DNA from: a virus
Lineage: Duplodnaviria; Heunggongvirae; Uroviricota; Caudoviricetes
Direction: 5' to 3' (one strand)
DNA: 38,874 nt
IMG/VR virus record: IMGVR_UViG_637000107_000014
In this document: positions 27,001-30,000 of the stretch, piece by piece
How positions within the stretch are numbered: position 1 is the stretch's first letter
How the letters are laid out: each line of letters starts with the position of its first letter
Position numbers: made by a program

Positions 27001-30000
27001 CCTCTCCGGCTGCCGGCAGCAGGGAGATTGTGCGAACGGACGTATCTGCAGACGGACCCGATGGCGTGTTGCCGCCGGGCGAGGGTTTGATTTCCGGTGC
27101 CTTACCACTGATGAAGGCTGAGGTGCGCCCGGCTGCGTTCAGAATAGCGGTTGCCATACGATCCGGAATAATGCTCCTGCGCGCCCATGAACTGAAATGT
27201 GTCGGGCGGTTTGATGATACCTGGTTTCCATTCGTTCTCGATGCCGCACCGTAATATCCTGATGCCGGAATATCCGGATCTTCTGCCGGCGCGTTAGTGG
27301 CGGTATTGACGCCGTTACCGTCTGTCATGAAGGGCACAAAATAAACGCCCTCACTCTCCCTGTTTTTGTACNCCCCGTANANGGTGTNGTACTGGGTNNC
27401 GTANGTATTTTTCCAGTAATACGTCGTGTCACCACAAATCCACGGCACATCTGCAGCNCTGCCACCATGGCACTGCGCGTTAAACACGGAGAGGTCAGCA
27501 CGAAACTGTGNCAGCATGGCTGTAAACAGCGCANGTTGCTGTGCGTGGGTGGCGGCGCTCATGTCAAACTCNCCNTGCATCCAGCANACGGCCAGCAGAA
27601 CGTTTTTGGGATTTTTCTGCAATGCCGCTTTTGTGCGGGAAATCAGATCCTGATATAACGGCTTGCCCACCCCCCAGCGTGCCGAATCCTGACTGGCCCC
27701 CGTGGACTCGCTGAATGTCCCCTCCGCGCCCTGGGTAAATGCCGAACCACCACGACAGCATGGTACCAGCAGGATCCCCGCGTTATTCGGGATATACGGG
27801 AGCAGTTTTTTGGCAATATGTAAACCCTGGCCGACACAGCCGTACTGCCCTTTGCTCAGGTCAGCCCTCGGATGATTCAGCGTACTCATATCCTGCACAT
27901 CATGCAGACAGTGGTCAGCCGGAATAATATCGTTATATCTGCAGGCAGCCCCGCCCGGCGTCACTGTACTGCGGCGCGCCAGCTGTTTAATGCGCGGATC
28001 CGGAGCATCGTATGAATCCGGCAGCGGAAGCCCTTCACCGTAAGCCATGGCATTGGACTGCCCGGCCAGTACGATGACGTAGTACCAATCCGGCTCAGAT
28101 GAAGGGCCGACCTGTGGCTCTCCTTCAATAGCCACCGCCTGCATCAGTGTGTACGGCGTAATGGCAACCGGTCCGCCGTATGGCTGCCAGCCCTCTTTCA
28201 GTTTGTGTGTCAGCTTTTCCGCAAGGTCTGACGGCGACGCCGCCCTGACAACATCATAATGTTTAATCGACATCGAATTTCTCCCGTGTAGAGGAACAGA
28301 GTTAAAAAGCCGGAAGCGGAATCAAATCACAGGATGACCATCTGCCAGTGGCTGGTCGTAAAAAAAGGCCGCGCCATGCGCAGCCGAAAATAAAGGGATA
28401 ACGATGATAGTTTGAGAAAAACAGAAATAACACTTTTGTGGCAAAGCATGGTGCCGGGTGCCTCCCGGTGAATTCAGTATCAGCACCTGAATCCGCGATT
28501 ACCCCATATTCCTTCTTGCTGATTGCCCCACCGCACAGGGGGATTCACCATGCAGAAGTGTTTTTAATAAACAGCAAACAAAAAAATCAAGCATTATGCA
28601 GGCTGTTTCTTTTTATCACCGGCCACAGCAATACCATAATGCCGCAGACCAGCACCCCATCCGCCAGCACCGACATGATTCTGCTGGTGAAATCCACCAT
28701 CACCACCAGAAACAGCAGGAGTGCAGCCACAGTCAGGCGCAGTTTTACCGTCACAGGTAATTCTCCAGACGAAGACCCAGAACACCGGCAATCTCTTCCA
28801 GCACCTTGCGCTCTTCCGGCTCAATTTCGCCGTCTGCCTCCGCAATGGCCACCGCCACATCCAGCACATCTTCCGCTTCACGCGTATCGTGTTTCACATC
28901 CTCGATCTCACGTAACGCCGCACGACGACCAGTTTTAAAGTTCGTATCCAGCTGACCGATAATGGTTGCGCTAATCGCATTAATTTCTGACGTAAACGCG
29001 TACAGCGCAGGCTGATTACGCAGTACCTGTTCGATCTTCGCTTTCTCGGATGCCTCACATTCACCATCTGCACAGGCCACCAGGTATGCGGCGTTAATCA
29101 CCACCTGTGCCAGATCGCGTTTTTCAAACTTTTTAATTTCCGTTGCCGCTCTGCGGGCTTTTTTTACCAAAAATACCAAACATCGTGACGTTCCTTTGGG
29201 TGGGTGAGCCAACGCCCGGGAGCGATCTGCCCACAGAGAAAGTCACACTGACCACTCCATAAGCTCCCCCCGAAAGGCTCTGTGGTTGGTATGCGCCGGG
29301 CGTGGTGCGGATACAAAAAAGGTCCGCAAAAGCGAGCGAGGGAAAATAAGTGTGGTGCGTTGTACTGGGTTCGAACCAGTGACCGATTGCTTAGAAGGCA
29401 ATTGCTCTGTCCGGCTGAGCTAAAAACGCAGAATACCGATAATGGACCGCCATCGGAGACTCGAACCCCGCGAAACCAGCTTCGAAGGCTGGCGTTCTAT
29501 CCCGATGAGCTAATGGCGGTATGTGATGGTGGCCCTTGCTGGATTTGAACCAGCGGCCTGGCGATTATGAGTCGCTCGCTCTCACCACTGAGCTAAAGGG
29601 CCGGGCGCAGGATAATAACGTTACGAAATCAATGTTGCAAGCATTCAAGAATCACCTGGTTAAAAATTACCCTTNCTTCCTCCACCAGCGCATTCACCAT
29701 GTCTATCCGAGATAAGTGGCACAAAAAAACCCGCTTGTGGGCGGGTTTTGTTTGCTTTTGCCATCACGTACAAAATCGGCAAAATATCAGATTTGCATGA
29801 AATATATGCCTTTCAATCTACTTTTGCAACACTTTGCTTTGAAAATGCCGCCTTTTGTTTTGAACGCGTTCTCATTACAAACAATAAAGCCTCACTATCC
29901 AGTCGGTGAAAAATGTGTTTCATTGCAACCCAGTGACGAGTAAATGTTTTGGACCAGTTTTTAGTTGTCACTCCCACCAGTAATGCCAGCTCCTTGTATT

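Follow-up and report, generated by a model that had tools for sequence, protein, structure and literature searches.

The stretch of DNA analyzed here (the window; 38,874 nucleotides of IMG/VR record IMGVR_UViG_637000107_000014) belongs to an E. coli O157-type prophage. On its minus strand, between Q with three tRNA genes on one side and a nanS-p-like esterase gene on the other, it carries two overlapping genes that homology identifies as tciA–tciB, an already annotated module first named in phage P1. TciA is a TerB-family protein, and TciB is a small hydrophobic protein of the DUF3927 family. Our preferred reading, to which we give a probability of roughly 0.55, is that the two proteins are translated together and form a TerB complex at the inner membrane that provides the phage with a dispensable accessory function, and that the tciA copy in the window is a weakened allele.

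The initial annotation placed the pair at a moron position equivalent to that of stx, and gene order agrees. All on the minus strand, Q (30508..29813; PF06323 match) is followed by the three tRNA genes (29353..29602; CAT anticodon, Arg-TCG, and Arg-TCT), the pair, and the nanS-p-like SASA/DUF1737 esterase gene (26420..28273), which forms the downstream boundary of the moron slot. ARAGORN calls the CAT-anticodon tRNA Met, whereas the NCBI annotation of identical DNA has it as Ile. Shigella phage 75/02 Stx carries stxA and stxB in this slot. Like stx and other cargo found between pR' and nanS-p in lambdoid prophages, the pair lies 3' of Q, pR', tR', and the tRNAs and 5' of a shared sRNA element and the SASA esterase (see also PMC4104026). 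However, the cargo in the window is unrelated to Shiga toxin and is without a known virulence role. A consensus scan located a pR'-like late promoter (29801..29829, minus strand; TTGCAA-17-TATATT) that overlaps the end of Q, and its position right after Q suggests that it is pR' itself. Further along lies a tR'-like intrinsic terminator (29726..29749, minus strand), consisting of the palindromic hairpin AAAACCCGCCCACAAGCGGG and a T run. With this promoter (29829-29801) and terminator (29749-29726) in place, and no promoter-like site detected by the consensus scan between the tRNAs and tciA, transcription of the pair from the late promoter is plausible, as had been proposed.

We assigned tciA (28751..29183, minus strand) to the TerB family on several grounds. 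The initial annotation had suggested HMM searches and structure prediction for both proteins; each protein scores above the cut-off of its Pfam family (PF05099 and PF13064, respectively), and AF2 models of both were obtained. TciA matches Pfam TerB (PF05099) with an E value of 5.4e-13 over residues 34-137 (49.7 bits against a gathering cut-off of 24.4), matches phrog_632 (E=2.2e-65), and aligns by phmmer with the solved Klebsiella TerB structure 2jxu_A (E=3.9e-7, residues 14-136). It is also homologous to P1 TciA, and the NCBI annotation of identical DNA gives the same family. The AF2 model has a pLDDT of ~80-88 in the TerB part, and its best Foldseek match in the PDB is the TerB-like protein 2h5n (prob 1.0, TMt 0.57-0.61). 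The TerB fold originally suggested for this gene is thus borne out by profile, structural homologue, and model alike. The acidic motif ADG-x(4-5)-E is duplicated; its two ADGE copies fall at positions 37 and 115 of TciA (142 aa), and D39, G40, D117, and G118 are invariant or nearly so among 68 homologues. Charge is unevenly distributed along the protein: the N-terminus has a pI of 10.6 and the remainder a pI of 4.4.

The downstream gene, tciB (28587..28754, minus strand), encodes 55 aa, of which residues 3-51 match DUF3927 (PF13064; E=1.7e-16; 60.4 bits, gathering score 25); phrog_1470 is matched over positions 1-54 of 54 (E=1.8e-29). The assignment also draws on family alignments, hydropathy, and the AF2 model. 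The tciB frame opens with a GTG (28754-28752) that runs into the TGA stop of tciA (28753-28751) to give GTGA, and a GGAG (28766-28763) lies 8 nt upstream of the GTG. An ORF of roughly 55 aa with a GTGA stop/start overlap is therefore present at 28754..28587, as first described. Because stop and start overlap, the two genes are expected to be translated as a coupled unit. The two hydrophobic helices originally attributed to the small protein fare less evenly. Hydropathy does show two 19-residue maxima, at ~2-23 and ~26-47, and an N-in/C-in topology would agree with the basic residues found at either end, but the AF2 model, built from a 69-sequence alignment, is one continuous helix spanning residues 2-54 (pLDDT 92); a hairpin appears in a low-confidence model of a fusion. 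The highly conserved central segment, VDFTSrIMSVLADG, has its polar residues on one helical face; D21, R25, S28, D32, and W44-P45 are among the conserved residues of TciB. A hairpin topology would put this most conserved part of TciB in the periplasm, where it offers no obvious docking site for a cytoplasmic protein. A natural frameshift fusion of the two proteins, P0133, folded only in its TerB part (pLDDT <50 in the TciB part), so it gave no docking information. Among 151 family representatives (1.84 billion representatives searched), there were no genuine TerB–DUF3927 fusions of the Rosetta-stone type, only chimeric or frameshift artefacts.

The pair had initially not been recognized as a described system, a view that the databases correct: it is annotated as tciA/tciB in P1 and many other phages, it falls into PF05099/PF13064 and phrog_632/phrog_1470, and its exact DNA is annotated in hundreds of O157:H7 genomes. 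A 701-bp stretch is 100% identical to these genomes, in which tciA is labeled "TerB family" and tciB "DUF3927 family." For the source of the tci names, we relied on GenBank notes and later papers. Compared with P1, TciA is 40% identical over its full length, and TciB is ~48% identical in the alignment and ~55% in the conserved core. Gene order, the overlapping stop and start, adjacent tRNA genes, and membership in PHROGs 632 and 1470 are common to P1 and the window. In P1, tciB is followed by tciC, a third small membrane ORF of 35 aa, whereas the window has an STnc100-like element there and no apparent tciC-like third ORF; the P1 pair lies in the C1-controlled ban early operon, that of the window in a Q-dependent late operon; and the start of tciA is frameshifted in the window. 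A 31-aa ORF at 28594..28499 overlaps the STnc100-like element. In P1, CRISPRi has shown the tci genes to be non-essential (PMC10695390). The searchable literature yielded no experiments on TciA or TciB.

The initial annotation would have been refuted by a small ORF that is absent from homologous loci or not conserved in them; the small ORF proved to be conserved there. A co-occurrence analysis, also suggested at the outset, covered 118 places, among them lambdoid, P1-like, P2-like, N4-like, and jumbo phages; in 116, the TerB gene immediately preceded DUF3927 and the junction was tight or overlapping. The median is 4 copies in the ~15% of complete E. coli genomes that have tciA–tciB. TciA lay upstream in all 80 IMG/VR loci picked by TciB and in 23 of 25 loci from other Enterobacterales genomes; a TciB profile detected a small ORF immediately 3' of TerB in 13 of 17 diverse phage loci, with GTGA, TGATG, TAATG, or TAAATG junctions or overlaps of 8-11 nt. 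TerB with an abutting or overlapping DUF3927 gene on the same strand occurs in P1, D6, Pollock, Asesino, LIET2, nickie, Arash, JLK-2012, Evi, PPyecE, and Klebsiella phage 5. A viral scan with a narrower TciB alignment returned only near-identical E. coli copies. More distantly related phage TerB genes (Vibrio D505, Pseudomonas AF and PMBT3, and Sinorhizobium phiM5) come without TciB, and therefore TerB can act without TciB; at one locus (L114), TciB is found without TerB. Estimates of dN/dS are 0.01-0.11 for tciA and 0.17-0.30 for tciB, which indicates that both genes are under purifying selection. Together with conservation across unrelated phages, these low ratios argue that the pairing is more than chance.

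This distribution bears on two further readings. The initial annotation raised a toxin or abortive-infection-like module; spelled out, this casts TciB as a small toxin that damages the membrane and TciA as the protein that restrains it. TciB is indeed small and hydrophobic and resembles membrane toxins, and tight coupling would fix the TciA:TciB ratio. However, neither protein matches known toxin families, the module is carried by lytic phages, where self-killing has no obvious use, and knock-downs of the non-essential P1 genes are tolerated. Many copies have also lost an intact tciA and kept tciB, and no addiction logic of the toxin-antitoxin kind is evident. We consider this reading very unlikely. 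The idea of a toxin, abortive-infection, or stress-response module echoes the names that the P1 genes received by homology, as well as the recent discovery that defense systems contain TerB domains.

In the second reading, TciB would be a membrane protein similar to a holin or antiholin, and TciA would tune it to adjust the timing of lysis. The position of the pair just upstream of the lysis cassette would fit. In lambdoid prophages from E. coli, Klebsiella, Pantoea, and Franconibacter, the pair has genes for holin and endolysin as neighbors, and a small membrane protein with basic ends could play this part. Yet separate holins are present in the identical O157:H7 DNA and in relatives, and neither protein matches a holin family. 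Genomic context is also far broader than lysis: the pair is found between Q and lysozyme, with P1-like DnaB, with P2-like GPA, and in N4-like and jumbo phages. P1 has it within the ban early operon, Pollock has it among early/replication genes, and a P2-like prophage has it beside GPA. A role in lysis timing therefore strikes us as highly improbable.

Comparison with better-known TerB systems suggests how a soluble TerB protein and a membrane peptide might work together. TciA shares the TerB fold and the duplicated ADG...E motif with TerB of the ter operon (terZABCDEF), and in both cases a soluble TerB protein is paired with a membrane partner, which in ter operons is the integral membrane protein TerC; a TerC–TerB complex has been cited (PMC12054061, PMC11003894). 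The resemblance has limits. TciA is only distantly similar to TerB of Klebsiella (2jxu, E=3.9e-7), and the 55-aa DUF3927 peptide is unrelated to the large integral-membrane TerC. TerC, TerD, TerZ, TerA, and TerE are absent from the neighborhood, which consists of Q, the tRNAs, DUF3927, and the SASA esterase. The name "tellurite resistance" comes from homology only. In DjlA and in YebE/DUF533 proteins, a transmembrane anchor and a TerB-like domain are joined in one chain. The C-terminal repeat of TciA is locally similar to both, although below the family cut-offs (DjlA, NCBIfam NF006948, E=3.6e-7 but 30 against 162 bits; YebE/DUF533, E=2e-5, 24.7 against 29.6 bits). TciA lacks a J domain and its anchor would be a separate gene, but TciB and TciA may reproduce the arrangement of anchor plus TerB as two chains. 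Searches of NCBIfam and PADLOC returned no informative family for TciA or TciB beyond TerB.

TerB-like proteins also accompany membrane-embedded components in the defense systems Dionysus (DinA/DinB/DinC), Shango (SngA), and Bunzi (BnzA), as in tciAB. We considered whether the pair is an exclusion or defense module, with TciA as a TerB sensor for membrane surveillance and TciB as a membrane effector that blocks DNA entry or depolarizes the membrane upon attack by a competing phage or colicin. Such a module would be a minimal analogue of TerB-containing defense systems. The moron slot of lambdoid prophages, beside other lysogenic-conversion cargo, would suit it. The module is also present in strictly lytic N4-like and jumbo phages, which counts against this reading, but exclusion genes occur in lytic phages as well, imm and sp of T4 being examples. 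A role in "membrane surveillance" has been proposed for TerB, which has also been described as amphitropic and is found beside membrane effectors in Dionysus, a system that combines the TerB of DinB with DinC, a pore-forming toxin with 4 TMs; Dionysus, Shango, and Bunzi are all validated systems (bioRxiv 10.1101/2025.09.30.679545). In addition, ter operons have been tied to phage inhibition and colicin resistance (PMC9603915; PMC12054061). However, neither DinC nor DinA, a MAEBL/TM protein, resembles TciB, and these systems are chromosomal loci, whereas tciAB is phage-borne. PADLOC-DB 2.0, which includes Shango and Bunzi but not Dionysus, gave no significant match (best for TciA, PDC-S48 at E=0.0053 over 35 residues; none for TciB). 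In the scan, no promoter turned up that could drive the pair separately in a lysogen, and tciA is decaying in many EHEC copies. On balance, we think an exclusion or defense role unlikely. The same degree of doubt attaches to a broader version, in which tciAB would be a minimal phage-borne device for membrane surveillance or superinfection exclusion with a Dionysus-like mechanism, spread across lambdoid, P1-, P2-, and N4-like and jumbo phages of Enterobacterales and rivaling stx for its slot, with the A7 run as a stable hypomorphic "off" allele in EHEC.

That A7 run, a homopolymer at 29159..29165 (minus strand), concerns the 5' end of tciA, and neither its frameshift nor the STnc100-family sRNA element between tciB and the terminator was in the initial annotation. 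The maximal tciA ORF, 29212..28751, reaches back to a TTG at 29212, where the gene had originally been taken to start. Alignment with JLK-2012, Evi, and PPyecE does not support that start: relatives use an ATG equivalent to 29183, and the TTG at 29212 is not native. In the window, the ancestral ATG at 29183 is out of frame with the body of the gene; JLK-2012 has six A's where the window has seven. The ATG frame ends after 16 codons at a stop at 29135-29133, and the in-frame body of 142 aa runs from a TTG at 29179, the start used by NCBI for identical DNA. Since the run shifts the ancestral ATG out of frame, full-length TciA would have to come from this weak TTG, 4 nt downstream, or from rare slippage, and TciA output from the A7 allele is probably reduced. 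Seven A's is short for efficient slippage; for this reason, we judged efficient programmed +1 frameshifting or transcriptional slippage at A7 unlikely. The allele is widespread: an exact 90-mer with A7 was found in 554 E. coli records against 3 with A6, and IMG/VR copies comprise 35 with A7, 10 with A6, and 22 with another in-frame N-terminus.

These features raise the question of whether the pair in the window is an evolutionary relic, with tciA effectively a pseudogene and the locus now mattering mainly through its tRNAs and sRNA. Besides the out-of-frame ATG, the unique changes in the window lineage point this way, with 4 nonsynonymous against 4 synonymous, whereas relatives have 0-2 against 5-25; one of the former is an A-to-V change at a position invariant in 68 homologues. 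Moreover, 25 of the 35 A7 copies in IMG/VR also have a premature stop, and NCBI flags one such copy as a pseudogene. In many EHEC copies, tciA has lost its intact form through frameshift and nonsense changes and tciB has been retained. In the window, however, the 142-codon frame from the TTG at 29179 is unbroken, follows the same Shine-Dalgarno sequence, and is intact according to NCBI. Its new N-terminus, MVFLVKK, is still hydrophobic and then basic, like MFGIFKKK, and tciB is intact. A relic is a real possibility, but on this evidence we hold it to be less probable than not, and we favor a weakened allele.

Downstream of the pair, an STnc100-family sRNA element (28410..28582, minus strand; Rfam RF02076, 100.8 bits against a gathering score of 47) begins 5 nt after the tciB stop and is possibly derived from a 3' UTR. 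An STnc100 core also lies ~95 nt after stxB in phage 75/02 Stx. Convergent Hfq-bound sRNAs have been reported at this sRNA site (PMC4104026). Rfam matched no anti-sRNA family on the plus strand of the intergenic region, its single plus-strand hit there being a weak one to asX2. The terminator initially noted after the small ORF is an intrinsic terminator at 28360..28385 (minus strand), with the form GGCTGCGC-ATG-GCGCGGCC followed by T7. Its 8-bp stem includes 7 G-C pairs, and the MFE fold contains the same hairpin at 28385-28360. The RNA fold of the stretch from tciB to the terminator is not unusually stable (z = -0.99).

Taken as a phage accessory ("moron") module, tciAB would operate as follows. 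Both genes would be transcribed within the Q-antiterminated late transcript, in the stx slot. TciA would be a cytoplasmic TerB-fold protein of ~143 aa that has two ADGE...E motifs and whose N-terminal helix is basic and body acidic. TciB would be a DUF3927 inner-membrane peptide of ~55 aa with basic ends and two hydrophobic stretches. We infer that the two would associate physically, with TciB holding or receiving an amphitropic TerB protein at the cytoplasmic membrane, in parallel with TerB–TerC of ter operons and with TerB plus a membrane effector in defense systems. In infected or induced cells, the complex might modulate stress on the membrane or from ions, or else how competitors such as other phages or colicins enter, and so benefit the phage as a dispensable accessory function.

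The pair is among the commonest cargos at the site that carries the Shiga toxin genes in related prophages, and phages of widely differing types carry it too, some of them strictly lytic. For annotation, it matters that a frameshift or truncation affects tciA in many EHEC copies. As TerB domains are emerging in validated anti-phage systems, a defined pair of a TerB protein and a peptide could be a simple model for TerB at membranes.

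The late region of this lambdoid prophage lies on the minus strand, and because the gene order found there matches that of the initial annotation, its coordinates and features are correct. In order, all on the minus strand, are antiterminator Q (30508..29813; PF06323, E=4e-91), a pR'-like promoter (29829-29801), a tR'-like terminator (29749-29726), three tRNA genes (29602-29353), a TerB-family ORF (TTG 29179 to stop 28751), a 55-aa ORF (28754..28587), an sRNA-like element, an intrinsic terminator (28385-28360) and a nanS-p-type SASA/DUF1737 esterase (28273..26420). The TerB ORF stop overlaps the GTG start of the 55-aa ORF in the sequence GTGA (28754-28751), and GGAG stands 8 nt 5' of that GTG; the overlap is consistent with translational coupling. 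A second promoter-like site (TTGCAA-17-TATTAT, 29612-29640, minus strand), just 5' of the first tRNA gene and 3' of the tR'-like terminator, could drive transcription of the tRNAs, and possibly of the pair, without Q. Elsewhere, a sok antisense RNA (32518-32692, minus strand; RF01794, 114.9 bits) marks a hok/sok-type (hokD) type I toxin–antitoxin locus 5' of the DUF968/RusA/Q genes, and an ALIL pseudoknot (17059-17175, plus strand; RF01497, 117.8 bits) supplies the frameshift signal of an IS3-family element (IS1203/IS629-like) that has inserted into the prophage. With 66 ambiguous bases between positions 289 and 38846 (13 in the 27-28 kb interval), the window has the appearance of a consensus or of a lower-quality assembly; such bases account for X residues in the ORF of the nanS-p-like esterase, but the stretch holding the pair has none.

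The pair had been taken for an undescribed system. It is biologically real, but it is not new: we identify it, at roughly 95% probability, as the tciA–tciB module. A megablast search of phage records found the same two genes, annotated tciA and tciB, in Escherichia phage JLK-2012, and both also occur in phages Evi and PPyecE_EH1910; tblastn ties the window genes to tciA (40% identity) and tciB of P1, where tciA, tciB and tciC sit in the ban operon, flanked by tRNA genes. Many E. coli O157:H7 chromosomes match the 701-bp stretch around the pair at 100% identity; in them NCBI labels the products "tellurite resistance TerB family protein" and "DUF3927 family protein", and this stretch is present in 807 of 5426 complete E. 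coli genomes (median, 4 copies). According to GenBank notes and later papers, the tci names were assigned by homology only, and our literature search found no experimental work on TciA, TciB or DUF3927. In P1 the module is dispensable, tciA, tciB and tciC all having scored as non-essential in genome-wide CRISPRi (PMC10695390); P1-like phage-plasmids have eight variable regions, one of which is made up of these genes (PMC9603915).

Window TciA matches Pfam TerB (PF05099) at 49.7 bits (cut-off 24.4), PHROG 632 "tellurite resistance" (E=2e-65) and, over almost its full length, the Klebsiella TerB NMR structure 2jxu (E=3.9e-7). In an AF2 model of a close relative, the TerB domain has a pLDDT of ~80-88 and the nearest PDB neighbor is TerB-like 2h5n. 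TciA is basic over its first 25 residues (pI 10.6) and acidic over the rest (pI 4.4), and an ADGE motif occurs twice, at residues 37 and 115. Window TciB matches DUF3927 (PF13064) at 60.4 bits (cut-off 25) and PHROG 1470 "TciB-like" (E=2e-29). The family consensus runs from a basic N-terminus (K4, R6) through ~14 hydrophobic residues, the best-conserved segment VDFTS(K/R)IMSVLADG and ~12 further hydrophobic residues to W-P-x-x-K and a basic tail. Two 19-residue hydropathy maxima (2-23 and 26-47) are present, and a 60-degree arc of the helix face holds D21, R25, S28 and D32, with S24 ~40 degrees further round. The basic residues at both ends favor an N-in/C-in hairpin, whereas AF2 (69 sequences) predicts one helix (residues 2-54, pLDDT 92).

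Using a TciB profile made from annotated and unannotated small ORFs, we found TciB directly 3' of the TerB gene in 13 of the 17 phage loci retrieved, including those of P1, D6, N4-like phage Pollock, jumbo Erwinia phage Asesino, Pantoea phage LIET2, Pseudomonas phage nickie, Salmonella phage Arash and a Klebsiella siphovirus whose record does not annotate the gene. The profile found no TciB beside the more distant TerB genes of Vibrio phage D505, Pseudomonas phages AF and PMBT3, and Sinorhizobium phage phiM5. Junctions are invariably tight (GTGA, TGATG, TAATG, TAAATG, a 3-nt gap or 8-11 nt overlaps). TciA lies upstream in all 80 IMG/VR loci picked via TciB and in 23 of 25 loci from genomes of Klebsiella, Salmonella and 18 other Enterobacterales species, the exceptions being a partial copy in E. 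albertii and a locus of Enterobacteriaceae bacterium G50 (~1875-3162), where the only full-length TciB seen without a TerB partner follows a DNA methyltransferase-like ORF. With 151 representatives at 50% identity in a set of 1.84 billion proteins, the DUF3927 family is small, and none of these representatives is a genuine TerB–DUF3927 fusion. Many kinds of phage, lytic ones included, thus carry the TerB-fold protein and the tiny membrane peptide as a co-inherited pair, and pairwise dN/dS (0.01-0.11 for tciA, 0.17-0.30 for tciB) shows purifying selection on both genes. Because the contexts, all phage-like, differ (Q or DUF968 then lysozyme, P1-like DnaB, P2-like GPA), the module has no fixed link to lysis genes, and a role as a lysis-timing accessory is highly improbable. 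tRNA genes adjoin the pair in P1, D6, JLK-2012, Asesino, nickie and the window (29353-29602), with identities that differ among unrelated phages (Asn/Thr/Ile, Asn/Thr/Gly, Trp/Cys, Arg, Ile/Arg/Arg). At ~4381-4956 in four Salmonella D6-like phage-plasmid contigs, tciA and tciB (and in one case, L101, a 34-aa ORF after them) are followed by a Tad2-like gene (PF11195); this family includes an anti-Thoeris protein, and the neighbor hints that the tci genes lie in an accessory or anti-defense region.

The window tciA allele is unusual at its 5' end. Relatives begin ATG TTT GG(T/A) ATT TT; the window has the same ATG (29183), then a run of seven A's (A7, 29165-29159), one more than in JLK-2012. The extra A ends the ATG frame after 16 codons, and the TerB body is in frame with TTG 29179, the start used by NCBI. 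The exact 90-mer with A7 is found in 554 E. coli records and its six-A counterpart in 3, so A7 is no sequencing error; the allele is fixed in hundreds of records. As a start codon TTG is far weaker than ATG, and here it competes with an ATG that uses the same Shine-Dalgarno sequence, so the allele would be expected to lower TciA output. Changes unique to the window lineage number 4 nonsynonymous and 4 synonymous (0-2 and 5-25 in three relatives), and one is A-to-V at an alanine invariant among 68 homologues. Among the IMG/VR loci, 25 of 35 A7 copies have a premature stop after "...GECEAS", and NCBI calls one such copy a pseudogene. That the window copy is a decaying relic is a serious possibility, if the lesser one. 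All of these tciA-impaired copies retain an intact tciB; the proposal that the pair is a toxin with its neutralizer strikes us as very unlikely.

Beginning 5 nt after the tciB stop is an STnc100-family sRNA element (28582..28410, minus strand; RF02076, 100.8 bits). The family's own 3' terminator is unmatched in the window and a hairpin at 28385-28367 takes its place; the terminator of the initial annotation lies 25 nt beyond the Rfam match, and the element explains its presence downstream of tciB. A 31-aa ORF (MLDFFVCCLLKTLL..., 28499-28594, minus strand), which begins at an ATG overlapping the end of tciB and lies inside this element, is probably spurious. In Shigella phage 75/02 Stx, the core of the element occurs ~95 nt after stxB, again 5' of a SASA esterase; since the core follows both cargos and precedes the esterase, tciAB and stx are alternative cargos of one slot. 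In several O157 Sakai prophages, Tree et al. described Hfq-bound sRNAs in convergent orientation, among them the anti-sRNAs AgvB and AsxR, positioned between a "moron CDS" and a conserved downstream ORF (PMC4104026).

We propose that TciA and TciB may form a complex at the inner membrane, a physical association that we consider moderately likely. Such an arrangement has precedents in the TerC–TerB complex known from ter operons (PMC12054061, PMC11003894) and in the amphitropic TerB beside membrane effectors in Dionysus-type defense systems (bioRxiv 10.1101/2025.09.30.679545); that tciAB is itself an exclusion or defense device seems unlikely. During infection or induction the module might modulate stress on the membrane or from ions, or keep competitors out, any such specific role being tentative and rather doubtful. 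Its significance is modest unless experiments show a defined function; what is added to knowledge is how widely and how tightly TerB is paired with DUF3927, a conserved motif in TciB, tciA alleles of EHEC prophages that are frameshifted and decaying, and the STnc100-like element.
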